Shown here piece after piece: positions 15,985 through 31,554 of a stretch of DNA of 50,408 bases. The first letter of the stretch is position 1. The number at the start of each line of letters is the position of its first letter. The position numbers and the translations under genes were made by a program. Location: NCBI GenBank assembly GCA_022561985.1, contig JADFQE010000004.1:1-50408 (forward strand), read 5' to 3'. This DNA comes from Chloroflexota bacterium (GTDB lineage Bacteria > Chloroflexota > Dehalococcoidia > Lucifugimonadales > Australimonadaceae). The notes beneath the pieces are model-generated. The model did not search any database. It was not told the origin of the DNA and saw only the letters and a list, made by a program, of their open reading frames with translations.

Positions 15985-16758
15985 CTACCCCGCCAGCGTC
16001 ACGTCGCCCTCGTCGAGGGCGTGCAGCACGCCGTCGTCCGTCCGCAGCAGCAGCCGGCCCGCCGCATCGACGTCCTCCGCCAGGCCGGAGAGCGTGGCGT
16101 TGCTCCCACGTACCCTGACGCTGACGCGCCGCCCGAGCGTGTCGATGGCCTCCCGCCAGCGTGCGATGAGTGCGGCCGGCTCGGCGCCGCCATACCAAGC
16201 GTCCAGGCTGGCGAAGAGCGCGTCGCCCGCCGTGCGCAGGTCGATCGAGCGCCCCGTCTCGGCGAGGAGGCTCGTGGCGGTGGCGGCGAGCTCGGGGTGC
16301 TCTGCAACGTCGAGGCTCACGTTGAGACCGATGCCGAGGACAGCGACACCGGCGCCGGTGGTGCCCGTGGCGTAGATGCGTCCCTCGGCAAGCACGCCGC
16401 AGAGCTTGCGGCCGTCCACCTGCACGTCGTTCGGCCACTTGATGGCGCAGCGGAGACCGCACAGCTCGCGGACCGCGTCGCGGACGGCCAGACAGCCGAT
16501 GATGGTGAGCAGCGGCGCGGTGGAAGCACTCGGACGCAGGACGACGGAGGCCAGCAGCGAGTCGCCCGAGACCCACTCGCGGTCGAAGCGGCCGCGCCCG
16601 TGGGTCTGCGTCCCGGCGACCACGCACGTGCCGTGGGCGGCCCCCGCCTCGGCCAGCTCCCACGCGACGTCCATGGTGGAGCCGACGCTCCGGTAGCCGT
16701 ACTCGTGGTGGCCGATGACGGCCGGCGGCCTGAATCGCTCCCAGTCGGGTCGTGGCAT
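15985..16758 (-). CDS. birA: Biotin-protein ligase without N-terminal HTH
   Basis: GSTMD, QTHGRGRFDREW, IKWPNDV, KLCGVLAE, LGIGLNV, EGDV. Confidence 0.93.
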   Translation of the reverse strand: MPRPDWERFRPPAVIGHHEYGYRSVGSTMDVAWELAEAGAAHGTCVVAGTQTHGRGRFDREWVSGDSLLASVVLRPSASTAPLLTIIGCLAVRDAVRELCGLRCAIKWPNDVQVDGRKLCGVLAEGRIYATGTTGAGVAVLGIGLNVSLDVAEHPELAATATSLLAETGRSIDLRTAGDALFASLDAWYGGAEPAALIARWREAIDTLGRRVSVRVRGSNATLSGLAEDVDAAGRLLLRTDDGVLHALDEGDVTLAG

Positions 16759-16821
16759 GGGGGGATTGTAGCGGTCCTGAGCGGCCCTGGCCCGAAGGCT
16801 GCAGCCTGCTAGGATGCCGCC

Positions 16822-18102
16822 GTGGACCTCTCCCGCCTCCTCTCTCCCTTCCGGGGCGCCATCGGCCCCGGGATGCTCCCGGTCTTTCTCATGTTCTTCT
16901 TCTGGGGATTCGGCACGGGCGGCCTCTGGCTGGCGCGCCCGCTCGTCGCCTACCAGGTCGGAGGATCGTTCCTGCTGGTGGCCCTCGTCTCCGCGGCCAG
17001 CGCCGCACCGCGGGTGATCGCGGGCCCGGTCGCCGGCTACCTGACGGACCGCTTCGGCAGGCGGCCGTTCATCGTGCTGGGCGCCGTGCTGCACATCGTG
17101 GCACTCGTCGGCCAGTTCTCCTCGGAGAGCTACATCGGCTTCCTGCTGCTGGAGGTCGTCGGGGGCACCGGCATCGCCGTCTGGATGACGAGCTCCAGCG
17201 CGCTGCTGGCGGATTCCACCGAGGTCGAGACGCGCGGGCGGGTCGTCGCGCTGCGCGCCTCGGCGTCGCGGGCCGGCGTGCTCGCCGGGCCGGTGGTCGG
17301 CGGCATCGTGGCGAGCCTGCTCACGCTGCGCCACGTCTTCCTGTTCATCGCGCTCACGAAGCTCATCGTCATCGCCATCACGCTGCTGCTCATCCGCGAG
17401 AGGCGCCGGCGGCCCGAGCCCGGCGTGCGGCCCGGCGTGCGTCTGGGCGCCCTGCCCCGCTGGCGCATGCCGAAGGTCGATCTGTCGATGTACCGCACGC
17501 GCGCCTTCCTGGCGCTCTCCATCGGTGCGATGGCCGTCGGCGGCGTGCTCGGAGGGACGGGCGCATTCAGAACGCTGTTCCCGGTCCAGGCCGCGGAGGG
17601 CGCGGGCCTCGGCGAGGTGGGGATCGGGAACCTGATCGCCATCGCGGGGCTGCTGGCGCTGGCCGCCTCGTTCCCGGCGGGGATGGCCGCGGACCGTATC
17701 GGACGCAAGCGGCCGCTCATCTTCGGGCTCCTGGGCGCCGCGCTGGGCGTGTGGCTCATGGCGGACATGAGCAGCTTCGGGACCGCGCTCCTGGCGGTGG
17801 CCGTCTTCGGGACCGCGGAGGCCTTCGCCACCGGAACGATCATGGTCTACGCCATGGACCTCGCCCCCGAGGACCGGCGCGGCGCATTCCTGGGCGCGTG
17901 GCAGCTCTCCATGAACGTCGGCCAGATGGCCGGACCGCTCGCGATCGGCGCCATCGCGGACGCCCGGGGGTTCCCGGCCGCCTTCGCCACCGTGGCCGTG
18001 GCCCTGGTCGTCGGCGCGGCGATGATCGCCGTTCTCGGTACCGAGACCCGCCGGGCCCGCCGCTATAATGATGGGGCCCCACGCACCAGGGACGGCCCCT
18101 GA
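16822..18102 (+). CDS. MFS transporter
   Basis: About 12 hydrophobic helices; motif A GYLTDRFGRR and GMAADRIGRK. Confidence 0.9.
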   Translation: MDLSRLLSPFRGAIGPGMLPVFLMFFFWGFGTGGLWLARPLVAYQVGGSFLLVALVSAASAAPRVIAGPVAGYLTDRFGRRPFIVLGAVLHIVALVGQFSSESYIGFLLLEVVGGTGIAVWMTSSSALLADSTEVETRGRVVALRASASRAGVLAGPVVGGIVASLLTLRHVFLFIALTKLIVIAITLLLIRERRRRPEPGVRPGVRLGALPRWRMPKVDLSMYRTRAFLALSIGAMAVGGVLGGTGAFRTLFPVQAAEGAGLGEVGIGNLIAIAGLLALAASFPAGMAADRIGRKRPLIFGLLGAALGVWLMADMSSFGTALLAVAVFGTAEAFATGTIMVYAMDLAPEDRRGAFLGAWQLSMNVGQMAGPLAIGAIADARGFPAAFATVAVALVVGAAMIAVLGTETRRARRYNDGAPRTRDGP

Positions 18103-18115
18103 GGAGGACGAGAGC

Positions 18116-18577
18116 ATGTCGAAGGTCGAGGACAAGCTAGCCGAGCTCGGGCTCGAGCTCCCGGAGGCCGTGCCCCCCGTGGGCAGCTACATCGTGGCGT
18201 ACCGGTCGGGGAACCTCGTGTTCACCTCGGCCGTCGGGCCGCGCTCAGCCGACGGCAGCATCACCGGCGTGCTCGGCGCCGACTGCACGGTGGAGCAGGG
18301 CTACGAGGCCGCGCGCCGCACGTGCCTGCGTATCCTGACCAACGTGAAGAGCATCGTCGGCGACCTGGACCGCGTCTCGCACGTCGTCAAGGTCTTCGGT
18401 ATGGTGCAGTCGACGCCTGAGTTCACCCAGTACGGGCAGGTGGTCAACGGCTGCTCCGACCTGCTGGTGGAGATCTACGGCGAGGCGGGCAAGCACGCCC
18501 GGACGTCCATGGGCGTGGCCCACAACCCCTTCGACGGTACGGTGTCGATCGACGCGATCTTCGAGGTCCGGGACTAG
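18116..18577 (+). CDS. RidA/YjgF family protein
   Basis: GNLVFTS, VVKVFGMV, VNGCSDLL, GKHARTSMG; GAGGAGG RBS. Confidence 0.88.
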   Translation: MSKVEDKLAELGLELPEAVPPVGSYIVAYRSGNLVFTSAVGPRSADGSITGVLGADCTVEQGYEAARRTCLRILTNVKSIVGDLDRVSHVVKVFGMVQSTPEFTQYGQVVNGCSDLLVEIYGEAGKHARTSMGVAHNPFDGTVSIDAIFEVRD

Positions 18578-18848: not shown

Positions 18849-19919
18849 TCAGACGGCTGCCTGGATCACCGTGACGGACGGCAGGTCCGTGATCAGCGGT
18901 TGCCAGCTTTCGCCCCGGTCTTCGCTCATGTAGACGGCCCCGGAGCCGGGTACGCCCGGGGTGAACCCGAATGCCTGGGACTCGTTACCGAGAGCGGCGA
19001 GCACGGTGTCGGCATCAGTCGGATGGTGGGTCAGCGCATGGGCGAACCATTGGGTCGACTCGGGCAGTCCCCGCGTCGTCACCTGCCAACTGCCGCCGAG
19101 GTCGTTGCTGATGAGGAGCACGCCCTCGGGCCCCGAGGGCCGGTGCCAGAACCCGGGGGAGCCCCTGGAGCCCGCCAGCAGCATGCGGGGCGGACTTCCC
19201 GGGAGGAACAGGAAATCATGGGAGTAGCTGTCCGCCTCGGTATACGCCCAAGGCATCCCCTCTTCCGCACGCTGCCACCCATCGCCGGGGCTGTCCGTCA
19301 CGAAGAATCCCCTCGCAGACGACACGAAGTAGCGGTCCCGACTTCCGGGGTAGTTGGCAAGCACGTGCATGTCCGGATAGACGAGTCCTTCGCTGACATC
19401 GTCCCACGACGCGCCCCCGTCCCGGCTCCGGACGACCCCTCCATGCTCCAGCGTGAGGAAGAGGAGGTCCGCATCGTCAGGATGGATGAAGATATTGCAG
19501 ACGTGGGGCGGGATGCGGCCCAGATGCCTGGCCGGGACGGTCCATTTGGCCGTCACCTCCTCCGGCATCTCCAAGAGCGTGTCGATCGCACGCCAGGATC
19601 GACCCTCGTCGGTGCTGCGGTGCAGTCGTATCGGCCCCGCTCCAGCGTAGATGGTCCGCCGGTCGTGCGGGTCCACCGCGAACGCACGCACGTCCTCATC
19701 GATGACCCGCTCCCACTGGACCCCCCCGTCCGATGAGCGATACGCGCCGTCGTAGGCGACCCCCGCCAGCAGGACGTCCGGGTCGTCAGAGGGCGTGCAC
19801 AGCTTCGTGATGGACTTGCCCTCGAAGGACCTCGCGACGATGCTCGCACGGCCCTCCTCGCAGTCGACGACGAGCAGCCCCACGTGTGTGCCCAAGTACA
19901 GTCTCAGATGCTCGGCCAA
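18849..19919 (-). CDS. BNR/Asp-box beta-propeller protein (Ycf48/sialidase-like fold), no signal peptide
   Basis: Repeated SxDxGxxW boxes (SSDGGVQW, STDEGRSW, SRDGGASW, SNDLGGSW, SEDRGESW); GGAGGTGA RBS before TTG. Confidence 0.8.
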   Translation of the reverse strand: MAEHLRLYLGTHVGLLVVDCEEGRASIVARSFEGKSITKLCTPSDDPDVLLAGVAYDGAYRSSDGGVQWERVIDEDVRAFAVDPHDRRTIYAGAGPIRLHRSTDEGRSWRAIDTLLEMPEEVTAKWTVPARHLGRIPPHVCNIFIHPDDADLLFLTLEHGGVVRSRDGGASWDDVSEGLVYPDMHVLANYPGSRDRYFVSSARGFFVTDSPGDGWQRAEEGMPWAYTEADSYSHDFLFLPGSPPRMLLAGSRGSPGFWHRPSGPEGVLLISNDLGGSWQVTTRGLPESTQWFAHALTHHPTDADTVLAALGNESQAFGFTPGVPGSGAVYMSEDRGESWQPLITDLPSVTVIQAAV

Positions 19920-20113: not shown

Positions 20114-21400
20114 ATGGTGACCGAGAAGGAACGCGAGCAGACGGCGGCGGCCGAGCCGCTGCCCTACCTCGGGCGCAGCGCGCGCATCGTCGGCGACTGG
20201 CGCTCGGTCGACGTGGAGCAGACGCCCCACAACAAGAACAACCGGGGCGAGCTGGGCAAGGCGCTCTACTACTACCGGAACAACCGCGTCTCGCCCGACC
20301 CCCTCAGCCGCATCGAGACCTCCGCGCTCTCGGCCGACCGGCGGAACACCTTCGAGCGCGTCCTCGCGCAGGCGCCGGCCGGCGCCATCAACCCCGAGCG
20401 CGTGCCCGTCCCCGACCCCAAGGCGATGACGGCGCACATCAAGCGCGTCGCCAAGTACCTGGGGGCCTCCGACGTCGGCATCATGCGCATCCGCGCGCCG
20501 TTCCTGTACGCCAAGGGCGCCTATCCGGACGAGGGCACCGGCGCGGTCGCCACGGACTCGAGCTCGCTCACGCCCGAGGAGGCTTCGGAGCGCTACCCCT
20601 ACGCCATCGCCCTGGTCTACGCGTGGGACTACGAGATGGGCCGCGCCCACCGCCACCGCATCGGCGACGCGGCCTACCACTTCGGCGCGGAGCACCTGCG
20701 CGCGACCTACGCCAACTTGGCGTCGTACATCAAGGAGCTCGGCTACTCCGTCGTCCAGCGCGTGGCCACGCCCATGCCGGTGGCACTCGCCGCCGGGCTC
20801 GGCGAGATGGGCCGCCACGGCATGCTCATCACGGAGCGCTTCGGAGCGCGCGTGCACCTCGGGTCACCGATCCTCACGGACATGCCCTTGGTCACGGACG
20901 AGCCCATCGACCTCGGCGTCACTGACTTCTGCCAGGTCTGCAACAAGTGCGCGACCGCCTGCCCGACGAACAGCATCACGACCGGGGGCAAGGCCGTCGT
21001 CAACGGGGTCGAGAAGTTCAAGATCAACTGGGAGACGTGCTACCGGCTCCGCCCGCACGTCGTGGACTACTGGTCGTCGTGCCTGACGTGTGTCGCGGTC
21101 TGCCCCTACACGAAGCCCAACGTCTGGTGGCGGACGGTGGCCATACGGGCGATCAAGTGGACCCCGATCCCCCTCCGCGGCCTCGTCACCCGGCCGCTCA
21201 AATTGATCGACGACACCTTCTGGGGCAAGCTCGGCCGCAAGCGAGTCCGGTTCATGAGCTACGATTCCGGCAGCCTGAAGCTGCCGGACGGCACGCACGT
21301 GGGGCCCGAAGGCGACACGGGGTACTACTACCCGCTCAAAGAGAACGCCCGGCGGTTCGACCTGCTCAAGGCGAAGCTCAAGAGCAAGCCCGACGCCTAG
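20114..21400 (+). CDS. Reductive dehalogenase-like (RdhA/QueG superfamily) cobalamin and 2x[4Fe-4S] protein
   Basis: LGASDVGI, AGLGEMGRHGMLIT...ILTDMPL, FCQVCNKCATACP and C-x13-CLTCVAVCP. No Tat signal, no rdhB. Confidence 0.8.
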   Translation: MVTEKEREQTAAAEPLPYLGRSARIVGDWRSVDVEQTPHNKNNRGELGKALYYYRNNRVSPDPLSRIETSALSADRRNTFERVLAQAPAGAINPERVPVPDPKAMTAHIKRVAKYLGASDVGIMRIRAPFLYAKGAYPDEGTGAVATDSSSLTPEEASERYPYAIALVYAWDYEMGRAHRHRIGDAAYHFGAEHLRATYANLASYIKELGYSVVQRVATPMPVALAAGLGEMGRHGMLITERFGARVHLGSPILTDMPLVTDEPIDLGVTDFCQVCNKCATACPTNSITTGGKAVVNGVEKFKINWETCYRLRPHVVDYWSSCLTCVAVCPYTKPNVWWRTVAIRAIKWTPIPLRGLVTRPLKLIDDTFWGKLGRKRVRFMSYDSGSLKLPDGTHVGPEGDTGYYYPLKENARRFDLLKAKLKSKPDA

Positions 21401-21447
21401 GGCGCGGGGACCAGACGCTGGGCACGCTCGGCGTTGTCGTGGCGCGC

Positions 21448-21849
21448 TCAGACCCCGAGAAGCTCGAGCGCCCTCGCGAGGAGCTCCGCCGGGCGGAAGG
21501 GCTTGGTCATGTAGCCGTCGGCGCCCGCCTCCAGCGCTTTGTGCATCGTGGAGTGCTGCGCGAAGGCCGTTAGCACGACGACCTTGATGTCGGCCGTCGC
21601 GGGGTCCGCCTTGATCGCCCGGCACACGTCGTAGCCGTCCATGCCCGGCATCATGACGTCGAGGAACACCAGCTCCGGGTGCGCGGTCCGGCAGATCTCG
21701 ATCGCGGACGGGCCGTCCGAGGCGACCAGCGCATCGAGCGCGGGATGCCTGTCGAGGGTCGCCTGCCCGAGCTCGCGGATCAGGGCTTCGTCGTCGACCA
21801 CCAGTACCTTCTTGCGCACGGGCTTGCGCACGACGTCCGCCTCGCTCAT
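21448..21849 (-). CDS. Stand-alone response regulator receiver (CheY-like)
   Basis: VLVVDDE, VFLDVMMPGMDG, LTA, TKPF; overlaps the kinase stop codon. Confidence 0.93.
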   Translation of the reverse strand: MSEADVVRKPVRKKVLVVDDEALIRELGQATLDRHPALDALVASDGPSAIEICRTAHPELVFLDVMMPGMDGYDVCRAIKADPATADIKVVVLTAFAQHSTMHKALEAGADGYMTKPFRPAELLARALELLGV

Positions 21850-24764
21850 GGGGTCCAGGCCGACTCTTCCACCCGGGAGCCGAGCCTGGCGATCGGCACG
21901 GTGAAGAAGAACGTGGAGCCGCGGCCCGGCTCGCTCTCGAGCCAGACCTCGCCGCCCATGAGGCCCACGAGCTGCCGGACGATATAGAGGCCGAGGCCCG
22001 ACCCGCGGATGTGGTCCGTCTCGGCGTTGCGGACGCGGTGGAAGGTCTCGAAGACCGCCTCGGCGTCCTTGGGATGGATGCCGATCCCCTCGTCCGAGAT
22101 GCTGATGACGACCCGCTCGTCGCGCGGCTCGTGCCGCCCGCTGACGACGATCCTGCCGCCCTTGGGGCTGTACTTCATCGCGTTGGTCAGCAGGTTCATC
22201 AGGACCTGAGAGAGCTTGTTGCGGTCCGCGAGCACCTTCGGCAGGAACGGGCCGCAGTCCACGATGAAGTCGTGCATCTCCGTCGTGGGCGCGAGCACCG
22301 CCACCACGTCCGCGATGCTCTCGTGCATGGCGATGCGCTCCACGGTCAGCCCGACCTTCCCCGATTGGATGCGCGAGACATCCAGCATGTCGTCCAGGAT
22401 CCCCGTGAGCCGCTGGGTCTCCTCCGAGATGTACTTGAGCCAGCGCTGCTGGCGGGAGTCGTTCCCAACCTCGTCCAGCAGCAGGTCCGTGAAGCCGATG
22501 ATCGTCGTCATCGGCGTGCGGAGCTCGTGCGAGGCCACGGACACGAAGGTGTCGCGCCGGCGGTCGAGGTCGCGGTCCTGGGTCACGTCCCGGATCAGGA
22601 TGCCGACCATGCCTTCGTCGGGCGAGAGAGCGATGGGGAAGCTGCTCAGGGACAGGTCCAAGCGCTGCGGCCGGACCATGACGAGGTCCACCCTCGCGTC
22701 CTTCGCGCTGCCGTCCACGAGCGACATGAGCGCCGTGGCCGCCGCAGAGGGGTCCTCGAAGTCGGGCGCGCGCGCGTCCACCAGCTCGCTGAAGAGCCGG
22801 CCTTTCGCTGCGCTCGCAGCAACCGCGAGGAGGGTCTCCGCCGCGCCGTTGAAGTACACCACGCGCCCATCGGCATCGAGCACGACGAGGCCCTCGGTGA
22901 TGGAGGCTTGGATCGCGGTCAGCGTGCTGCGCTCACGGGTCTGCGCGGCGTAGAGCCGGAGGTTGTCGATGAGCACGCTGGCAAGCATGGCGAAGAGGTC
23001 GAGCAGCCGCTGATCGTCGTCGTTGAATGCCGTGTCGTCGCTCTTGCCCTCCAGGTAGAAGACGCCGCGGCCCAGGTCCCGGGACCGGAAGGACGACGCC
23101 AGCGACGAAGGGGTGTCTGCGTCGGAGGGGCTCCGGGAGATCGACGGAGGCCCGCCGAGGCCCGCCGCCGCCAGGGTCGGCAGGTATTCGCCGATCACCT
23201 TCACGGCCTCGCCCTGCGCGTTCCAGACGACCACGGCGCCGTGGCGCGCACCGACGAGGTCGCGGGCGGCCTCCACGAGCTGCTCGAGGGTCTGGTCCGC
23301 GTTCTCCTCCAGGGCGAGCCGGCTCGCCGCCGCCTGGAAGGCCTCGGTGCGCTTCCGCCCCGTGGCGAGCTGCGCGTGCACCTCCTGGTACAGCCGGGCG
23401 TTCTCCATGCCCGTCGCGGCCTGGTTGGCCACGGCCTGGAGCAGGTCCACGTCCTCCTGGCTGTAGCGCCCGCCGCGCTCCCGTTGGCCCAGGAGCAGGA
23501 CGCCGGCGAGCTCACCCCTGGAGATGACCGGCACGTAGAGCCGGAAATTCGCCTTCTCCAGGGCGTCTCGGGTCGCCTTGCTCAGCGCCTGCCACTCGGG
23601 GAGCAGCGAGAGCTCCTCCGCGAACATCACCCGCTCCAGACGGGCCAGGCGCGCGAAGGCGGCGCTGCCGGCGGCGAAGGGAACCGATAGCGAGAGGTCG
23701 ATCCCGGACGCGGCCGTGAGCCGGAAGCCTCCGCCCCGGCCGTCGGGCTGGAGCAGCCCAACGAACTGGGCGTCGACGGACCGGCGCACGAGCTCGACCA
23801 GCGTGCTGGCGAAGGTGTCGGCGTCGGTGATGTCCCGGATGCCCTGGCTGAAGCGCTCCAGCGCCCGCAGCGAGGAGTACCGCCCCCGGAAGAAGCCCTG
23901 GTCCACCCAGCGCTGCACGCGCTCATTGAAGCGCGGGACCGTGGCGACGACGACGACGGCGAAGGTGAGCGTGAACGTCAGCGCCGGCGGCGCGAGCGCC
24001 GTCCCCGACAGGCGCCCGATGACGGCGTGGACGAGCGCGTAGCTCGCGAGGACGAACCCCACGAGCAGCGCGGACGAGATGGACTTCCTGCCCACGAGCT
24101 TGATGTCGATGAGCCGGCCCTTGAGCATCGCGAAGGTGACGAGGACCGCGAAGAGCACGTTGCCGACGATGCCGGCCGGGAAGATGGGCACGCCGAGGAC
24201 CGGCAGCACGTCGGTCGTCGCGCCGATCAGCGACGCGATGATCCCCGCCATCACGTAGCTGGCCCGGTTTCGGATCGCCGGCGACTCGCCGTGACGGATG
24301 GCGTGCCCGATGTTCCCCAGACCGATGGCGGTGGCGGTGTAGGTCACGACGAGGAACGGGACGAACCCGGGGCCCATGATGAATGCGTAGCCGTAGTCCT
24401 TGAGCTGCATGCCGGTGACGATGACGCCCAGGAACGTCGCGACGCCGATGACCGCGACAGCGCTGTACGCGAGGGGCATGACGAGCTTGAACGGGGACAG
24501 GCGGGCGAAGGAGTAGGTGAAGTGGAGGAAGAGGACCGTGATGAGCGCCAGGTCCACGATGACGAGCTTTTCCCAGAGGTAGGCGTCCTCGAGGGTCGCG
24601 CTCGACCGCATCATGTAGAGCAGACCGCCCCACATGGCCATGCTCAGCAGGAACAGCGCGAAGGGACGGCCACCCTTGGCCTGCCACTGCCCCCTCCACG
24701 CGAAGAGCGCCAGGCCCAGGTTCGCAACCAGGGCGATGAGCGGCAGCAGCAGATACATCGACAT
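21846..24764 (-). CDS. Sensor histidine kinase: N-terminal multi-TM (HisKA_7TM-like), GAF, GAF-like, PAS, HisKA, HATPase
   Basis: ~280-aa hydrophobic N-terminus; YSQEDVDLLQAVANQAA GAF end; PAS EGLVVLDADGRVVYFN; SHELRTP, NLLTNAMKYS, DEGIGI, GSGLGL. Confidence 0.92.
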   Translation of the reverse strand: MSMYLLLPLIALVANLGLALFAWRGQWQAKGGRPFALFLLSMAMWGGLLYMMRSSATLEDAYLWEKLVIVDLALITVLFLHFTYSFARLSPFKLVMPLAYSAVAVIGVATFLGVIVTGMQLKDYGYAFIMGPGFVPFLVVTYTATAIGLGNIGHAIRHGESPAIRNRASYVMAGIIASLIGATTDVLPVLGVPIFPAGIVGNVLFAVLVTFAMLKGRLIDIKLVGRKSISSALLVGFVLASYALVHAVIGRLSGTALAPPALTFTLTFAVVVVATVPRFNERVQRWVDQGFFRGRYSSLRALERFSQGIRDITDADTFASTLVELVRRSVDAQFVGLLQPDGRGGGFRLTAASGIDLSLSVPFAAGSAAFARLARLERVMFAEELSLLPEWQALSKATRDALEKANFRLYVPVISRGELAGVLLLGQRERGGRYSQEDVDLLQAVANQAATGMENARLYQEVHAQLATGRKRTEAFQAAASRLALEENADQTLEQLVEAARDLVGARHGAVVVWNAQGEAVKVIGEYLPTLAAAGLGGPPSISRSPSDADTPSSLASSFRSRDLGRGVFYLEGKSDDTAFNDDDQRLLDLFAMLASVLIDNLRLYAAQTRERSTLTAIQASITEGLVVLDADGRVVYFNGAAETLLAVAASAAKGRLFSELVDARAPDFEDPSAAATALMSLVDGSAKDARVDLVMVRPQRLDLSLSSFPIALSPDEGMVGILIRDVTQDRDLDRRRDTFVSVASHELRTPMTTIIGFTDLLLDEVGNDSRQQRWLKYISEETQRLTGILDDMLDVSRIQSGKVGLTVERIAMHESIADVVAVLAPTTEMHDFIVDCGPFLPKVLADRNKLSQVLMNLLTNAMKYSPKGGRIVVSGRHEPRDERVVISISDEGIGIHPKDAEAVFETFHRVRNAETDHIRGSGLGLYIVRQLVGLMGGEVWLESEPGRGSTFFFTVPIARLGSRVEESAWTP

Positions 24765-24769
24765 GGGCC

Positions 24770-26419
24770 CTAGACCACCAGGCTCGGTGTTGGCCCGACG
24801 CCCGTTGCGCCGGTGCCCTTCGCTTCGATGACGAGCCGGCTCTTGAGCATCAGCTCCTCGATCTCCTCGTCGGCCGCATTGATGTGCGGGATGGCCTGGC
24901 GGTCGAGGTCCACGCGCCGCGCGCGGCGGTCCTTGGCATAGGCATCGAACGCCCCCGGCTCGATGGCCGCGATCCGCAGCGGCCGCACGGCGAGCATCTC
25001 CTGGAGGTCGCGGTAGTAGGTGTCGCGGTCGAGCAGGCTGCGGTGGAGCGCGGCCTCGACCTCCACGCCGTCGCGGCCGGTGCGCTCCATGTACACGCGG
25101 AGGACCGGGTCCGGCCCCTCGTACTCGCGGCGGGCGGTCCACGTGAACGGGGAGAGCCCGGCATCGCGCATGGCCGCCGCGATCGTGGCCTCGTCCAACC
25201 GCGTGAAGCCCGCGATATCGATCAGGTCGTTGACGCGCCCGCACGGGACCACCTGCGGCAGGGCGATGCCCGCGTCTTCGTCCGAGAGGGCGAGCACGTC
25301 GACCAGGACGCCGGTGCGGTAGCGCAGGAACGGCATGCCGACGCACGAGGTGATGACGACCTCGTAGCGCACCCCCGGCTCGATCTCGTCCATCAGGACC
25401 GTCCCCAGATCCGATGGCCCGGCGCCATCCCGCGCGAGGGCGTCCTCCTCACGGATGAATTCGAAGAAGTTGGTCCCGGGCACGAAGGTCATGCCCGCAC
25501 GCGTCCAGCTCTGCATCGCCAGGATGCCGCCCTCCGTGATGGCGAGGAACTCGTAGGGGTCGCACCCCCAGTAGTGGCGGATCTGGTCGCGGTAGACGCC
25601 GGTATCGGTGCCCCAGCACACGAGCGCCTTGAGCTTCCAGAGGTCCTTGGGCAGCACCGCGCGGCCCTCCCGCTTGGCCCTGAGGACGGCGCCAAGCATC
25701 CGCCAGGCGACGTTCGGCCTGCGCAGCAGGCCGATCGCTGAGCGGCCCTTGGAGCGCTGCTCGAAGGACTCGCCCATCTTCAGGAGGACGCTGGTCATGG
25801 ACGCGACGACGTCCACGCCACCCGCCAGCGCGCGCTCGAACCCGAGGGCCACCTTGTCCTGGAAATCGAGATCCTCCGCCTCGTCGAACCCGACGACGGC
25901 CCGGAGCTGGACCCGCTCGGCCAACCCCTGGGCAAGCATGCCCGAGAGGTAGGGACTCGGGGGGAAGTTGTAGAGGATGCGGTCCTGCGCTTCGAGGCGC
26001 GTGTCTCCCCTGCCGTCCGCCGCGGCCAGCAGGAACGCCGCCGTGGAGCCGTCCATGAGGTGCTCGAAAGCGGCCTGGTTGTAGGGGACCAACGCCTCGT
26101 CCATGTTCAGGCGGCTGGTCTTCGCCCAGAAGATGGGGGGCTCGGGCAGCGTGATCGACATGAGCGGCTGGAAGAAGCTCCGGTAGTCCTCGAAGCTCGT
26201 GAGGGGGGCCACCCTCCTCAGCTGCTCGACCGACGCGACGGCGTGTCCGTCGAGGAACGTCCTTCCTATGCCGGACTTCGCGAGCGCGGGGAGTGCCTCC
26301 ATCAGCCTGCCGCGCTGGACCTCCATGAACGCAGGCGTCGAGAGATCCAAGAAGCCGCAGTACTTCTCCCAGGTGAGATGGCTCGGTACCCCGGCCGCTA
26401 GCGCCTGACTCCGGTACAT
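24770..26419 (-). CDS. GH3-family (acyl-adenylate/amido synthetase fold) protein with degenerate motifs
   Basis: PLTSFEDY, xTEGG, NFFEFI, YEVVITS, LRYRTG, GR hinge; 549 aa; ends 5 bp upstream of the kinase start. Confidence 0.75.
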   Translation of the reverse strand: MYRSQALAAGVPSHLTWEKYCGFLDLSTPAFMEVQRGRLMEALPALAKSGIGRTFLDGHAVASVEQLRRVAPLTSFEDYRSFFQPLMSITLPEPPIFWAKTSRLNMDEALVPYNQAAFEHLMDGSTAAFLLAAADGRGDTRLEAQDRILYNFPPSPYLSGMLAQGLAERVQLRAVVGFDEAEDLDFQDKVALGFERALAGGVDVVASMTSVLLKMGESFEQRSKGRSAIGLLRRPNVAWRMLGAVLRAKREGRAVLPKDLWKLKALVCWGTDTGVYRDQIRHYWGCDPYEFLAITEGGILAMQSWTRAGMTFVPGTNFFEFIREEDALARDGAGPSDLGTVLMDEIEPGVRYEVVITSCVGMPFLRYRTGVLVDVLALSDEDAGIALPQVVPCGRVNDLIDIAGFTRLDEATIAAAMRDAGLSPFTWTARREYEGPDPVLRVYMERTGRDGVEVEAALHRSLLDRDTYYRDLQEMLAVRPLRIAAIEPGAFDAYAKDRRARRVDLDRQAIPHINAADEEIEELMLKSRLVIEAKGTGATGVGPTPSLVV

Positions 26420-26692
26420 CGAAAGCCCCCGATCACACGCTCCGGGCGGAGCGGGACAAATCAGGCTAGCCCAGGGGGGTCGTGAATTGACCCTATGAAC
26501 GCGACGGCTAAAGAGAATCGTCCGAAAGTACTAGCCCATCACCCGAAAGGAGTAGAGACACCCGTCCCTTGGGACGCTGCGACGGAGGGGGCGCTGCGGC
26601 AGGGGCGGCCGATGCTGACGGTGGCGGGCGCCGCGTACTACACTATCGGCCGTCGCCCACTGCGGTGCGACACTCTTCTGAAGGGGGCGCCG

Positions 26693-27814
26693 ATGGTACG
26701 CAGCTACTTCACACACGACAACTGGATGGAGAAGCAGGCCGACGGCGGAGTGCCGGTCTACCACGACTGCTACGTCGACGACCTGCGCACGCTCAAGCTC
26801 GGCCACTGGGCCATGCGCGACTGCGATGCCGCGTTCATCCGCTTCACGGACATGGGCGGCGTCACGGAGGCCCGCGTCCAGGAGATCCCCCCCGGCGGCT
26901 CGCTCAAGCCATTCAAGCTGGGCGTCGACGAGATGGTGTACGTGCTCAGCGGCACGGGACTAGCCTCCGTCTGGGGACGCTCGGCCGAGGTCCGCCGCGA
27001 TTTCGAGTGGTCTGCCAGGAGCGTCTTCATCATCCCGCGGAACTCCTGGTGCGAGCTCCGGAACATGGAGGGTGACAAGCCGGTGCGCCTGCTGCACTAC
27101 AACTACCTGCCCATCGCCATGAGCGTCATCCCCGACCCCTCCTTCTTCTTCAACAACCCCGACGTCAACGACAGCCTGATCGACGACGCCGACGCCAACT
27201 TCTTCTCCGAGGCCAAGGACTTCGTCAAGGAGTTCGGCAGCGCCTGGGGCAAGGTGGGCGGCCAGGTCTGGCGCGGCAACTTCTACCCCGACCTCTTGGC
27301 GTGGGACAAGATCGTGAGCGTCGGAGACCGGGGGGCCGGCGGCGCGTCCGTCTACATGTACGTGCCCGGCTCGGAGATGTCGTGTCACATGTCGGTGTTC
27401 CCCCCGGGTACCTACAAGAAGGCGCACCGCCACGGACCGGGGCGCCTCATCATCATCCCCGGCGGCGAAGGCTTCTCCATCATGTGGCCCGCGGGCGGCG
27501 AGAACGACAAGAAGATCTACCGCTGGCACGAGGGAAGCGCGCTGACCCCGCCCGACCAGTGGTTCCACCAGCACTTCAACCTCGGCTCCAAGCCGGCCCG
27601 CTACTTCGCCCTCCACCCACCCGTGCAGTTCATCGGCAAGGAAGAGGACGCGCAGGGCAACTCGACCGAAGTGAACATCGAGTACGTCGACGAGGACCCG
27701 TGGATCCGCCAGGTCTTCGAGGAGGAGCTCGCCAAGCACGGCCTCACGACGGGGATGCCGGAAGAGTGCTACACGGACCGGGATTACAAGTTCAAGAGCG
27801 TCAAGCTCTCCTAG
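26693..27814 (+). CDS. Bicupin protein, gentisate-1,2-dioxygenase-like metal site in the C-terminal cupin
   Basis: DEMVYVLSGTG (N-cupin); KAHRHGPG and QWFHQHFN (C-cupin). Confidence 0.75.
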   Translation: MVRSYFTHDNWMEKQADGGVPVYHDCYVDDLRTLKLGHWAMRDCDAAFIRFTDMGGVTEARVQEIPPGGSLKPFKLGVDEMVYVLSGTGLASVWGRSAEVRRDFEWSARSVFIIPRNSWCELRNMEGDKPVRLLHYNYLPIAMSVIPDPSFFFNNPDVNDSLIDDADANFFSEAKDFVKEFGSAWGKVGGQVWRGNFYPDLLAWDKIVSVGDRGAGGASVYMYVPGSEMSCHMSVFPPGTYKKAHRHGPGRLIIIPGGEGFSIMWPAGGENDKKIYRWHEGSALTPPDQWFHQHFNLGSKPARYFALHPPVQFIGKEEDAQGNSTEVNIEYVDEDPWIRQVFEEELAKHGLTTGMPEECYTDRDYKFKSVKLS

Positions 27815-27837
27815 GATCGCGCACTCGGGAGCAACCC

Positions 27838-29142
27838 ATGTTGACCCAGGAGCAGAACGAGCGGCTCACCCAGGTTGGTCCGGGCACGCCGATGGGCGTG
27901 CTGATGCGGCGCTACTGGCACCCCATCGCCGGGAGCGCCCAGCTCAACGACGACACGCCCACCAGGGAGGTCCGCCTCCTGGGCGAGGACCTGGTGCTCT
28001 TCCGAAGCTCGGCGGGCAAGCTCGGGCTGATCGAGCCAAGCTGCGCGCACCGCAAGGCGAACCTCTCCTACGGCATCCCCGAGCCAGAGGGCATCCGCTG
28101 CCCCTACCACGGCTGGCTCTACGACGAGAGCGGCCAGTGCATCGACCAGCCTTCGGAGCCCGAGGGCAGCCGCTTCAAGGAGAAGGTCAAGCTCAAGGCC
28201 TACCCCGTCGAGGAGCTCGGCGGGCTGATCTTCACCTACATGGGCCCCGAGCCCGCGCCGCTCCTCCCGCGATACGACGTGCTCGCCTGGGACGGGATCA
28301 AGGACGCGCACTCGACCGTCCTGCCGTGCAACTGGCTCCAGTGCATGGAGAACTCGCTGGACCCGCTGCACTTCCAGTGGCTCCACCGCTACTGGGGCGG
28401 GTGGACCATGAACCGCACGAAGTCGGCCGCGGAGCGGGACGCTTGGAACGCGCAGGTGGGCGCCCGGGGCGCCGAGCACCGCAAGATCGGCTTCGAGATG
28501 ACGGACTACGGCGTGATCAAGCGGCGGCTCGTGGGGGATGAGACGGAGGCGGACGACCACTGGCGCGTCGGTCACCCCATCCTGTTCCCGACGATCCTGC
28601 GGGTGAGCCACGGGCTCGAGTTCCGCGTGCCCATCGACGACACGCACACCCTGCACCTCATCACCAACTACCGCCAGCGCGAGAAGGGCGAGGAGGCTCA
28701 GACCGAGGTCCCCTTCGTGGACCGGCCCCTCTACGACGAGGCCGGCCTGCTGATCCGTGACTACATTCCCGCCCAGGACCAGGTCGCCTGGATCATCCAG
28801 GGCCCGGTGAGCGACCGCACGACGGAGCGCCTCGGCGTGACCGACGTCGGTATCATCATGTTCCGCCGCATGCTGGAGGAGCAGATGAACGTGGTGGCGG
28901 ACGGCGGAGACCCGCTGAACACCCACCGTGACCCGGCGGAGAACGAGACCATCGTCCTGCCCTGCGAGTACTACATGTACCCCGGCTACGACGAGGTCGG
29001 CGGCCCGTTCAAGGACGCCGTCCCGCGCGAGCCGGACGTGCAGGCCGTGCTCTCGGGCGAGGGCGCTACGCGCGATGAGTGGGAGGGCATCGAGGCCCGG
29101 AGACGTGTCTGGGGCATCGGGCCGGCCAGAGAGTACAAGTAG
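27838..29142 (+). CDS. Rieske non-heme iron oxygenase alpha subunit, LigXa (DDVA O-demethylase)-like
   Basis: MLTQEQNERLTQVGPGTPMG, CAHR...CPYHGW Rieske motif, CNWLQCMENSLDPLHFQWLH, FRVPIDD, QDQVAW. Confidence 0.85.
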   Translation: MLTQEQNERLTQVGPGTPMGVLMRRYWHPIAGSAQLNDDTPTREVRLLGEDLVLFRSSAGKLGLIEPSCAHRKANLSYGIPEPEGIRCPYHGWLYDESGQCIDQPSEPEGSRFKEKVKLKAYPVEELGGLIFTYMGPEPAPLLPRYDVLAWDGIKDAHSTVLPCNWLQCMENSLDPLHFQWLHRYWGGWTMNRTKSAAERDAWNAQVGARGAEHRKIGFEMTDYGVIKRRLVGDETEADDHWRVGHPILFPTILRVSHGLEFRVPIDDTHTLHLITNYRQREKGEEAQTEVPFVDRPLYDEAGLLIRDYIPAQDQVAWIIQGPVSDRTTERLGVTDVGIIMFRRMLEEQMNVVADGGDPLNTHRDPAENETIVLPCEYYMYPGYDEVGGPFKDAVPREPDVQAVLSGEGATRDEWEGIEARRRVWGIGPAREYK

Positions 29143-29177
29143 GCCGCGCCAGAACCCGGGGCGCTGGCGCCGCGCCG

Positions 29178-30260
29178 CTACAGCCAGCGCGCGAAGGCCC
29201 AGCCACCACCCGTGCCAGCCGGCGTCCGGTACACGGGCACGTACTCGACGAGGTCCATCTCCAAGGGCGAATCGTGCAGCACGCCGCCCAGGGCCACCCA
29301 GTTCTGCGTCTCGGATGCCGCCGAGTAGAGCCGGTGGCGCGGGAGCGTCATCAGCGTCTCGGAGTCCCGCTCCGCGAGCGCGCCGAGCATCATGCGGTCC
29401 AGCTCCTCGTCCACGACGAAGTGGCTGAGCCCGCCCGAGGCCACGACGGCCACGCGGGCGTCGGAATCCCAGGCCTCGATCGCACCGGCGATCGCCTGGC
29501 CGAAGTGGAACGACCGGCGGCACGTCGGCTGGTTCGGCGGGTAGCAGGTGTTCTGGAACACGGGCAGGATCGGGGTCGGCTCGTTCTCGAAGAGGCGCTT
29601 GATCACGAAGGCGAACCCGTGGGGGAGCCCCTGGGGTTGCGGCTCGGTGACGCGGACGTTGTCCTCGTTCACGCCGTTCACCGTGGGGTAGCGGCGGCCG
29701 ATGCTCCCCCCGTAGGTCTCGTGGACGTGCTTGAAGTGGGCCACGTCGAAGTCGTGCTCGATCATGTACCCGATCATGTGGTACCCGAGGTCGCTGGCCA
29801 CCGGAACGTCGATGGGGATGTCGCCGTAGCCGAGGCGGATCGCCTCGTTCACGTCGGGGTCGCGGCTGTTGCCGCGCCGCGGCATCGGCCGGAGCGGGAC
29901 CGAGTCGCCCCAGAAGATCGAGAACGTCGGCATGTTGTCCTCGAAGAACCACTCGTCCTGGTCGTCGCTGATGATGACGGTGACGTCGGGCTTGGCCTCC
30001 CGCAGCGAGCGGCCGATCTCGGCGATGCCCCGCTGGCACGCGTCGACCTGCGCGGAGAAGACCTCGTCCGTGAGCGGCCGCTCCCTGATCGCGGCGGGGA
30101 CCTGTGCCAGCCCCTCCTCGTAGGACATCGAGATGCCGTCCGGGGGGAACACGAGCCCCTTGTGCCCGTAGTCGCCCACGGCGTAGCGCGGCCACTGCTC
30201 GGCGGTGAGTGCGAGCATCGGGCTGTGGGACGTTCCGATGCCCAGGACGATCTTGGCCAT
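29178..30260 (-). CDS. Type II extradiol ring-cleavage dioxygenase, LigZ-like
   Basis: MAKIVLGIGTSHSPML, PHGFAF, NTCYPPNQPT, AVVASGGLSHFVVDEE, SETQNW, YVPVYRTPAGTG. Confidence 0.85.
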   Translation of the reverse strand: MAKIVLGIGTSHSPMLALTAEQWPRYAVGDYGHKGLVFPPDGISMSYEEGLAQVPAAIRERPLTDEVFSAQVDACQRGIAEIGRSLREAKPDVTVIISDDQDEWFFEDNMPTFSIFWGDSVPLRPMPRRGNSRDPDVNEAIRLGYGDIPIDVPVASDLGYHMIGYMIEHDFDVAHFKHVHETYGGSIGRRYPTVNGVNEDNVRVTEPQPQGLPHGFAFVIKRLFENEPTPILPVFQNTCYPPNQPTCRRSFHFGQAIAGAIEAWDSDARVAVVASGGLSHFVVDEELDRMMLGALAERDSETLMTLPRHRLYSAASETQNWVALGGVLHDSPLEMDLVEYVPVYRTPAGTGGGWAFARWL

Positions 30261-30366
30261 GTCACAACCTCCGTGCGTACCCGGCGCCGGCGACCGGCGC
30301 TGCCCCCGCCAGTCTACAGCGCACGGTGAGGCCGTACCACGCCGCGAGCGAGCGCCACAGTCGTGC

Positions 30367-30395
30367 TTGACATACCTCCCGCGTGCATGTAAGAA
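30367..30395 (+). promoter_or_regulatory. Putative sigma70 promoter for the LigY-like gene
   Basis: TTGACA-17 bp-TAAGAA in the divergent intergenic region. Confidence 0.4.
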
Positions 30396-30528
30396 ACGCG
30401 CGGGCCTGTGACGCAGTGGCGCACCCGCGGTGGCGGCCTGCCGCACGGGTTTCACGCGCACACAACCCCACCCGCCTATCTTGTGCCGCCTGCCGGCGGC
30501 GCCTCGGCACCGCATCAAGGAGGACCCG

Positions 30529-31554
30529 ATGCTTGACGGTCAGAAGATCCTAGACGCCCACGCCCACACCAACGCACCGCCGGAGCTCTACGCCTACAAG
30601 GCGGGGCTGCTGTCCAGCCGCGGCTACCACGGCAAGGGCAACCCCAACATCTCGGACGAGCGGCTCGCCGGCGCCGTCAAGCGCGGGCTGGACATCATGG
30701 ACAGCGTGGGGACGGACATGCAGTTCCTGTCCCCCCGGCCGTTCCAGCTGATCCACTCCGAGAAGCCGGCGGAGATCGTCGACTACTTCTGCGAGGCGAA
30801 CAACGACGTGATCGCCCGCGTCGTGAAGTCCCACCCCGACCGGTACGCGGGGGTCTGCGCGCTGCCGCACCATGTGGACGAGCCGGACACCAAGCACCTG
30901 CTCGGCGAGCTCGGCCGCTGCATCAACGACCTGGGCTTCATCGGCTGCATGATCAACCCCGACCCCGGAGAGGGCGCGGGCTACACCCCGCCGATGGACG
31001 ACGAGTACTGGTACCCGCTCTACGAGGAGATGGTGAAGCTGGACGTGCCTGCGCTGATCCACTCCGCGGCCTGCAAGGACCCGCGCGAGTCCTACAGCGC
31101 GCATTTCATCACCGTCGAGTCCCAGGTGATCCTGAACCTGATCAAGCCCGAGAGCAACGTCTTCAAGGACTTCCCGAAGCTCAAGATCATCGTCGCGCAC
31201 GGCGGCGGGTCGGTCCCCTACCAGATCGGCCGGTGGCGGGCGTCGCGGTTCAACGCCATGAAGCGTGACTCCGCCCTCGAGGACTTCGACACCAGCCTCA
31301 AGCGGCTGTACTTCGACACGGTCCTCTACAACAAGGAGTCGCTGGACCTGCTCTTCCGGCTCGTCGGCTCCGACCGCTGCATGTTCGGGACGGAGAACCC
31401 CGGCAGCGGGACCTCCACCGACCCCGTGACCAACAAGCAGCTCGACGACACGGCGCCCGTCATCAACTCCATCGAGTGGCTCTCGCCGCAGGACAGGAAG
31501 AACATCTTCGAGGACGTTCAGAAGAAGGTCTTCCCGCGCCTCAAGGTCAAGTAG
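30529..31554 (+). CDS. Amidohydrolase, LigY (meta-cleavage product C-C hydrolase)-like
   Basis: DAHAH, APPELYAYKAGLL, GTDMQFLSPRPFQ, YWYPLYE, HGGGSVPYQIGR, LYFDTVLY, FGTENPG. Confidence 0.85.
   Translation: MLDGQKILDAHAHTNAPPELYAYKAGLLSSRGYHGKGNPNISDERLAGAVKRGLDIMDSVGTDMQFLSPRPFQLIHSEKPAEIVDYFCEANNDVIARVVKSHPDRYAGVCALPHHVDEPDTKHLLGELGRCINDLGFIGCMINPDPGEGAGYTPPMDDEYWYPLYEEMVKLDVPALIHSAACKDPRESYSAHFITVESQVILNLIKPESNVFKDFPKLKIIVAHGGGSVPYQIGRWRASRFNAMKRDSALEDFDTSLKRLYFDTVLYNKESLDLLFRLVGSDRCMFGTENPGSGTSTDPVTNKQLDDTAPVINSIEWLSPQDRKNIFEDVQKKVFPRLKVK

Follow-up and report, generated by a model that had tools for sequence, protein, structure and literature searches.

What would a protein with the fold of a GH3 ligase contribute to a two-component system, and why would its gene lie directly upstream of a membrane sensor kinase? 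The question is raised by three consecutive genes on the reverse strand of a 50,408-nucleotide stretch of Chloroflexota DNA (contig JADFQE010000004.1, positions 1 to 50,408, of assembly GCA_022561985.1), which we analysed as a whole and call the window: a GH3-like open reading frame (ORF; P0001, 24770-26419, 549 amino acids), a sensor histidine kinase (21846-24764, 972 amino acids from the ATG at 24764 that we chose as its start) and a stand-alone receiver (21448-21849, 133 amino acids). A preliminary description, made from the DNA sequence alone, had proposed that the trio at 21448-26419 is a signalling module in which the first gene encodes a synthase or ligand-binding partner of the receptor encoded by the second. 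The arrangement it gave is present in every detail. Five base pairs separate the GH3-like stop codon (24770-24772) from the kinase ATG, the receiver ORF overlaps the kinase stop by 4 bp, and the trio has no DNA-binding output domain, Pfam finding Response_reg only in the receiver.

We find that the pairing of a GH3-like gene with a gene for a 7TM/GAF receptor recurs widely, which strongly supports the view that the two proteins work together as one signalling module. Our preferred reading of the window itself, to which we give a probability of about 0.45, is that its GH3-like protein would be a synthase-derived, probably non-adenylating pseudoenzyme that serves the kinase as a ligand-binding or regulatory co-sensor, the trio acting as one signalling unit.

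GH3-like protein, sensor kinase and receiver

The window DNA has about 70% GC, and the named homologues of its proteins come from Chloroflexota and Dehalococcoidia metagenome-assembled genomes (MAGs). In Pfam, P0001 matches only GH3_M (PF23571; 1.2e-7, 32.2 bits against a cut-off of 23.6) and gives no match to the GH3 N (PF03321) and C (PF23572) models, while relatives at 40-47% identity carry all three. NCBIfam provides no useful name; its best match, to the DVU_1553 AMP-ligase family, scores 20 bits where the cut-off is 300. Searched as a single sequence against solved structures, P0001 reached an insignificant best E value of 0.11 (GH3.15); a 17-sequence profile aligned collinearly with plant GH3 structures at 2e-15. 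The AlphaFold2 model, built from a 76-sequence alignment, has a predicted local distance difference test score (pLDDT) of 86.7 and a predicted template modelling score (pTM) of 0.81. Its top Foldseek matches are GH3.15, GH3.6, GH3.5, OsGH3-8, GH3.12 and JAR1 (E 3e-21 to 2e-19, TM 0.5-0.65; for example 6e1q at E 3e-21 and 4epl at TM 0.65), and below the plant GH3 proteins come BT_0428 and PaaK-type ligases. By descent and predicted two-domain fold, P0001 is a GH3-branch member of the adenylate-forming (ANL) superfamily.

The kinase combines a multi-pass membrane region with GAF, a second GAF-like stretch, PAS, HisKA and HATPase_c. Its Pfam matches are HisKA_7TM (PF16927; 1.3e-14, 55 bits against a cut-off of 28.6, and 60 bits in the genome search), GAF (5.8e-17), PAS (3.2e-7), HisKA (9.8e-20) and HATPase_c (8.2e-30). 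The HisKA_7TM membrane domain occupies 24102-24740 on the reverse strand (kinase residues 9-221) and is followed by two more hydrophobic segments, to about residue 279, which makes about nine such segments across residues 1-279. The GAF domain (23400-23828, reverse strand; residues 313-455) is, with the 7TM region, the part kept in all receptor types described below. The transmitter (21888-22916, reverse strand) consists of PAS (residues 617-731), HisKA (737-802) and HATPase_c (847-959), and its boxes are intact: H746 in HELRTP, NLLTNA at 857, DEGIGI at 891 (G1) and GSGLGL at 921 (G2). In the receiver, Response_reg (2.4e-29) spans residues 15-126 of 133 with no output domain, and the phosphorylation residues are all present, namely the D19/D20 acid pocket, the phospho-acceptor D64, T94 and K116.

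A genome-wide search of the source genome (a 2.39-Mb assembly, 88.7% complete) found a single GH3-like gene and a single HisKA_7TM gene, which adjoin. Because each gene is single-copy and they are neighbours nonetheless, their adjacency is far beyond chance.

Conservation of the GH3-like/receptor pair

The preliminary description had proposed a gene-neighbourhood survey and a co-phylogeny of GH3 and HisKA_7TM proteins as checks on the module. We surveyed 79 loci from species-representative genomes together with the window, 80 in all, of which two end inside the GH3 gene and 78 could be assessed; ORFs were called and then matched to a 7TM model built from 20 downstream receptors. The linkage is strongly conserved: a receptor starts no more than 250 bp downstream on the same strand at 68 of the 78 loci and lies within 3.5 kb at six more (L038, L039, L062, L064, L075 and L078). 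Four have no receptor, two of them (L068 and L073) with less than 800 bp of downstream sequence. A metagenome set, separate from the genome loci, comprised 80 loci among the matches listed; here the receptor was adjacent in 50 of the 74 that could be assessed, near in 13 and lacking in 11, eight of which have less than 800 bp of room. The pair is carried by Dehalococcoidia, Anaerolineales and Spirochaetes, by one delta-proteobacterial MAG, and by Alkalithermobacter, Firmicutes of the Faecalibacterium and Gemmiger types and Haloplasmataceae. Several carriers are Firmicutes or Mollicutes-like genomes, and at least one, Alkalithermobacter paradoxus DSM 7309 (L041), is in culture.

What varies among the receptors is the output. 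According to Pfam matches in 71 downstream ORFs, a constant 7TM-GAF input is joined to HD_5 (HD-GYP) at about 30 Dehalococcoidales loci, to GGDEF plus HD_5 at seven, to HisKA plus HATPase at about 11, to HisKA_2 at three Spirochaetes loci and to HisKA_3 at one, and there is one hybrid kinase. About half of the receptors therefore terminate in HD-GYP or GGDEF plus HD-GYP instead of a kinase core. Since the output varies in this way, the conserved unit is the GH3-like protein with the 7TM-GAF sensor and need not include a histidine kinase. The one-module idea of the preliminary description thus holds for the GH3-like/7TM-GAF pairing and has to be amended for the histidine kinase, which is not the fixed partner. 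The proteins encoded next in line also differ: two relatives of the window locus (L002 and L003) likewise have stand-alone receivers, of 123 amino acids, and OmpR-type regulators come after kinase-type loci whose GH3 motifs are intact (L020, L029, L031, L040 and L067).

The two halves of the pair have the same history. Pairwise distances among the GH3-like proteins and among the receptors (residues 1-460) are correlated with a Mantel r of 0.97, a value reached in 0 of 2000 permutations, and the two trees mirror each other, with the same major clades. The delta-proteobacterial pair (L059) nests inside a Chloroflexota clade in both. The mirror trees show that the pair is inherited and transferred as a unit. 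At all five loci of the window's own clade with readable downstream DNA (the window, L001, L002, L003 and L082), 4-5 bp lie between the GH3 stop and the receptor. We found nothing on a GH3-like/7TM-receptor pair in the literature that we searched (Creative Commons-licensed PMC papers and bioRxiv).

The distribution is patchy. A GH3-like match occurs in 95 of 400 other genomes of the class, at no more than 43% identity. None of the matches from this class-wide search belongs to the window's clade; the best is 43% identical. No GH3-like match was found in any of the nine same-family genomes sampled, nor in any of the 11 same-order genomes among those listed, all of which are 92-97% complete. The metagenome scan gave at least one locus of the window's clade (L082) among the matches listed; roughly 27 metagenomic clusters (P0004-P0030) belong to that clade.

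A few loci carry irregular genes. The receptor of L005 (4624-6709) looks split, a 394-residue 7TM ORF being followed by GAF and kinase-core matches in another frame, which could be due to a frameshift or an assembly error. At L074 (6944-8635) the GH3-like gene is itself split into a 431-residue ORF and a separate 121-residue GH3_C ORF, with no 7TM receptor within 7.3 kb, and is possibly decaying. In-frame stops occur in the GH3-like matches of G400, G215, G070 and G147.

Remodelled nucleotide-binding motifs and the role of the GH3-like protein

Adenylation by ANL enzymes uses the A10 lysine of the C-terminal domain, and the aspartate of motif III (YRxGD) binds ribose. We aligned 112 family members, 104 of which entered the tree. 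In this tree, which is unrooted, the basal branches read TSG[RK][SG]G...K, YRxGD and L-K-P-P-H, the lysine of the last aligning with that of the plant Q-Y-K-x-P-R. In a derived 72-row clade (SH-aLRT 98) the motif III aspartate is lost. Within it, the 38 rows of the HD-GYP-linked Dehalococcoidales clade all have histidine at that position and mostly keep TSGxxG. The window's clade, 32 rows with an SH-aLRT of 100 and a stem of length 0.45, has changed at all three sites. Its motif I reads T-S-R-[LR]-N, with the first glycine replaced by arginine in 32 of 32 rows; the motif III aspartate is kept in none of the 32, the position being V, E, L, H or Q; and the C-terminal lysine is likewise kept in none, being replaced by A, S, T, M, V, Q, H or R (arginine in two rows, with a gap in one).

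In the window protein, alignment with plant GH3 structures and the family places the remnant of motif I at residues 101-110 (TSRLNMDEAL, for T-S-G-x-S-G-x-x-x-K; 26090-26119, reverse strand). V371 of Y367-R-T-G-V371 stands at the motif III aspartate position (25307-25309, reverse strand), and A509 at the position of the lysine in the plant Q-Y-K-x-P-R and in the L-K-P-P-H of motif-intact relatives (24893-24895, reverse strand). Motif II, YGSSE in AtGH3.11, is A293-I-T-E296; its glutamate is invariant in all 76 aligned sequences, and the tyrosine and serine positions differ.

The published counterparts are AtGH3.11, with S100SGTSQGRPK109, Y330GSSE334 and G397LYRYRLGD405, and OlsH of Singulisphaera acidiphila, which keeps all three motifs as T114SGTTQGATK123, T289YPCSE294 and G353MWSHLIGD361; the parts of the OlsH report on which we draw state that mutagenesis (S115A in motif I, S293A in motif II) validated the functional importance of the motif serines (PMC12493201).

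These changes do not have the look of a gene falling apart. S102, R103 and N105 are invariant in 21 members of the window's clade that are 47-83% identical, among about 150 invariant columns. The ratio of nonsynonymous to synonymous substitution rates (dN/dS) of the GH3-like gene is 0.26 against L002 and 0.34 against L003, compared with 0.19 and 0.40 for the kinase and 0.27 and 0.18 for the receiver; the GH3-like protein is under purifying selection, similar to the kinase. Because S-R-x-N is invariant in the clade and dN/dS is 0.26-0.34, the motif change appears to be remodelling rather than decay. The suggestion that the gene is a former synthase gene in decay and now functionless, or that its position means nothing functionally, could appeal to the lost catalytic signatures and to the patchy distribution in the window's own family and order, and we regard it as very improbable given a frame open over 549 residues, selection like that on the kinase, the conserved new motif, the 4-5-bp coupling to the receptor at all five clade loci and the confident AlphaFold2 model.

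How might such a protein work? In our preferred reading it would be a cytoplasmic partner of the kinase's 7TM-GAF input module. The kinase would phosphorylate the stand-alone receiver, and the receiver would relay the signal through protein contact or a phosphorelay, not through DNA binding. Across the family, the GH3-like protein probably used ATP to make an acyl-amino-acid-type signal for the receptor next to it. In the lineage of the window, where the ATP/AMP-binding signatures are remodelled and tailoring genes absent, adenylation has most likely gone, and the GH3 shell may have been kept for binding; it might recognise a ligand of the kind once made by its ancestors.

The contact with the kinase that we infer was also approached by co-folding, a prediction that the preliminary description had suggested. 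GH3-like residues 1-535 with kinase residues 1-460 gave an ipSAE of 0.40 (0.45, 0.39 and 0.40 in individual runs), while the best of three controls scored 0.00; contacts coincide between runs to at least 92%, and the partner pLDDT is 71. The score passes a mark that 116 of 157 solved complexes and two of 215 mismatched pairs reach, and it lies in the range up to 0.60 that contains just 18 of the 157 solved complexes and both passing mismatches; custom alignments were used, so these calibration counts apply roughly. We take the prediction as weak support, a small increment in favour of a GH3-like/kinase contact.

Several points weigh against a non-adenylating co-sensor. We infer the loss of catalysis from the replaced motifs, and the protein retains the motif II glutamate (E296) and the hinge arginine (R395). 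The new invariant arginine and asparagine in the former P-loop could still bind phosphate, in which case a changed chemistry is possible. The motif III aspartate may be dispensable in this bacterial family, because the 38-row HD-GYP-linked clade has histidine there and mostly keeps motif I. Only five loci of the window's clade have context, three of them close kin. The mirror trees, too, prove no co-evolution beyond co-inheritance, since kin share neighbours.

The strongest competitor is an enzyme that still works: it would ligate an acid to an amine with ATP, and the 7TM-GAF kinase would bind the product as its ligand, in a circuit that is autocrine or resembles quorum sensing. For the motif-intact relatives this is an attractive picture. 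A membrane methyltransferase of about 190 residues, PEMT-like, lies directly upstream of some of their GH3-like genes (L042:6351-6965, L067:6360-6932 and L072:6338-6928) and is fused to the GH3 N-terminus in others (L038:6362-8596 and L073:6401-8635); several other upstream ORFs of 190 residues have no Pfam match at 1e-5. Between the GH3-like gene and the receptor stand ThiF and a B12-binding radical-SAM enzyme at L038 (8613-11349) and L039 (3354-5823), and a ketoacyl synthase with a B12-binding radical-SAM enzyme at L062 (8701-11494) and L064 (8669-11439). Such a pattern fits a small-molecule synthase and its tailoring enzymes encoded beside their own receptor, and in the motif-intact members the enzyme's product is probably sensed by the 7TM-GAF neighbour. 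Speculatively, the PEMT-like methyltransferase/GH3-like pairs might be linked to a product class known from Roseovarius, for which the part of the report that we consulted states that the synthase gene was not found (PMC11580390). An HTH_45 regulator gene is also present upstream at L038, L039, L077 and L078.

For the window protein, the family-wide pairing, the retained E296 and R395 and the purifying selection would suit an active synthase, as would the chemistry of OlsH, which uses ATP to join a fatty acid to ornithine and so forms N-acyl ornithine (PMC12493201). Against this, motif I, the motif III aspartate and the C-terminal lysine are replaced in all 32 rows of the clade, the OlsH serine mutants indicate that such residues matter, and the protein is no longer matched by the Pfam models for the two ends of GH3. 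Its neighbourhood contains neither a methyltransferase nor another tailoring gene: the PEMT-like, ThiF, B12-radical-SAM and ketoacyl-synthase genes found beside motif-intact relatives are all lacking in the window's clade. We consider an active synthase in the window possible but doubtful. Of the preliminary description's alternatives, "synthase" thus suits the motif-intact relatives and fits the window poorly, where "ligand-binding partner" fits better.

The GH3-like protein could instead act on or downstream of the receptor, covalently modifying the receptor or a carboxylate of another protein, or serving as an effector under the receptor's control. That the pairing persists whatever the output domain is what one would expect of a protein that touches the sensor; the co-folding result passes, weakly; and some relatives carry ThiF-type E1 enzymes, which elsewhere act on protein or peptide C-termini. 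However, the motif losses argue against any ATP-dependent ligation in the window, the methyltransferase, ketoacyl-synthase and radical-SAM neighbours of relatives suggest small-molecule chemistry, and the order of enzyme first and receptor second is that of known synthase-receptor pairs. We think this explanation unlikely.

Comparison with known systems places the co-sensor reading among precedents that each share part of it. OlsH has the bacterial GH3 fold and joins fatty acids to amino acids with ATP, and by analogy this type of chemistry is the most plausible ancestral chemistry of the GH3-like family; it differs from the window protein in keeping its three nucleotide-binding motifs, of which motif I and the motif III aspartate are replaced here, and in serving membrane-lipid synthesis with the acyltransferase OlsI, the consulted parts of its report mentioning no receptor neighbour (PMC12493201), whereas the window protein is coupled to a sensor kinase.

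Plant GH3 proteins (JAR1/GH3.11, GH3.5, GH3.6, GH3.12 and GH3.15) share the two-domain fold (Foldseek E to 3e-21, profile 2e-15), and JAR1 makes a receptor-active hormone conjugate, that is, it is a synthase feeding a receptor. They are 13-16% identical to the window protein, which does not keep SSGTSxGxxK, YRxGD or the lysine of Q-Y-K-x-P-R, and the plant receptors for GH3 products are soluble F-box proteins, unrelated to 7TM-GAF. In CqsA/CqsS of Vibrio and LqsA/LqsS of Legionella, an enzyme gene lies beside that of a multi-pass membrane sensor kinase and a lipophilic signal is sensed in the membrane; in keeping with a CqsA/CqsS-like logic, the GH3-like and 7TM genes are conserved as neighbours across lineages. 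CqsA and LqsA are active pyridoxal phosphate-dependent acyl-CoA transferases, not of the GH3 fold, and their sensors are not HisKA_7TM-GAF proteins. In the Rpf system of diffusible signal factor (DSF; RpfF, RpfC and RpfG), one circuit links a signal derived from a fatty acid to a sensor kinase and an HD-GYP output. Its synthase, RpfF, is reported to bind directly to the sensor RpfC, which sets a precedent for contact between a synthase and a sensor. There, the synthase has a crotonase fold and HD-GYP belongs to a separate response regulator, whereas in the GH3-linked receptors it is fused to the 7TM-GAF sensor. UhpC with UhpB, and DctA or DcuB with DcuS, exemplify an enzyme- or transporter-family protein as a kinase's ligand-sensing accessory, but these accessories are membrane transporters. 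We know of no co-sensor with a GH3/ANL fold, and found none in the literature searched.

It is tempting to speculate further that in the window's clade a signal synthase has turned into a receptor subunit, its GH3 shell bound to the 7TM-GAF kinase and its remodelled S-R-x-N pocket recognising the ligand, so that the cell would listen to a signal of other community members. We hold this version only tentatively.

RNA-library coverage, neighbouring genes and significance

Runs that carry the label marine sediment metatranscriptome contain sequence of the window. RNA-seq libraries of two studies (X5 and X7; X6) hold contigs that match it at 95% or more. They overlap each of the three genes in part and span both junctions, GH3/kinase (X7 record 27, 24679-24863) and kinase/receiver (X5 record 10, 21667-21920); 25112-25963 is uncovered. 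These contigs are consistent with expression, although DNA may be present in such libraries and contigs prove neither transcription nor a single transcript. Two of them from different studies (X5 record 13 and X6 record 22) both end at 24771, 7 nucleotides upstream of the kinase ATG, where a probable DNA run reads through. The ends of transcripts cannot be read from contigs, and the shared end point hints, weakly at best, at an internal 5' end or a processing site. A scan of 21200-26700 returned no promoter-like and no terminator-like site, and no sigma-70-like promoter matched in the 75-bp divergent region between the GH3-like and cupin genes (26420-26494); such a scan is uninformative in Chloroflexota DNA of 70% GC.

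Across that region, a cupin gene (26495-27814, forward strand) starts 75 bp from the GH3-like start. After it come a Rieske/LigXa-like oxygenase gene (about 27823-29142), a LigB-type extradiol dioxygenase gene (29178-30518, reverse strand) and an Amidohydro_2 amidohydrolase gene (30430-31554), and by its predicted products 26495-31554 is an aromatic-catabolism-like cluster. The preliminary description had raised the possibilities that the trio senses an aromatic acid and controls the cupin-Rieske genes. The first finds no support, and we rejected it because the cupin/Rieske neighbours are limited to two relatives that are 83-84% identical (L001 and L002); the synteny is absent from L003, which has an IS110 transposase upstream, and from every other locus. 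Control of these genes by the receiver was likewise rejected, since the receiver has no DNA-binding domain and the synteny is not conserved.

On the other side, a reductive-dehalogenase-like protein with two 4Fe-4S motifs is encoded at 20114-21400 on the forward strand (TIGR02486, 1e-43, 150.5 bits against a cut-off of 160); its gene and the receiver gene are convergent, and neither L002 nor L003 shares it. Further along, a BNR/Sortilin-repeat protein (18849-19919, reverse strand) and a long ORF with a C-terminal biotin-protein-ligase domain (15985-18135, reverse strand) are unrelated to the GH3-like/kinase finding. At HD-GYP-linked Dehalococcoidales loci such as L006 (801-3482), L008 (3843-6473) and similar ones, the opposite-strand upstream gene often encodes a molybdopterin oxidoreductase with an AhtL-like (pyrogallol hydroxytransferase-like) first domain.

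What is new here is the tally of swapped outputs, together with a clade whose nucleotide-binding signatures are remodelled and whose pairing is kept. To our knowledge, the ligands of HisKA_7TM-type sensors are essentially unknown, and OlsH is the one characterised member among bacterial GH3-like proteins. An enzyme-sensor pair offers a concrete route to both, as the enzyme's product is a candidate ligand. If our interpretation is right, the GH3-like/7TM-GAF pair would be a small-molecule signalling system not described before, with histidine-kinase and cyclic di-GMP outputs, and it would tie an unknown class of signal to cyclic di-GMP and phosphorelay control in, among others, Dehalococcoidia and other anaerobes that are hard subjects for genetics. 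The window's clade, having kept the pair while its ATP-binding signatures are gone, is a natural experiment that can separate a catalytic from a structural role of the partner. Its GH3-like protein would be the first ANL/GH3-fold pseudoenzyme to act as a two-component co-sensor, and a new example of the recruitment of pseudoenzymes into signalling.

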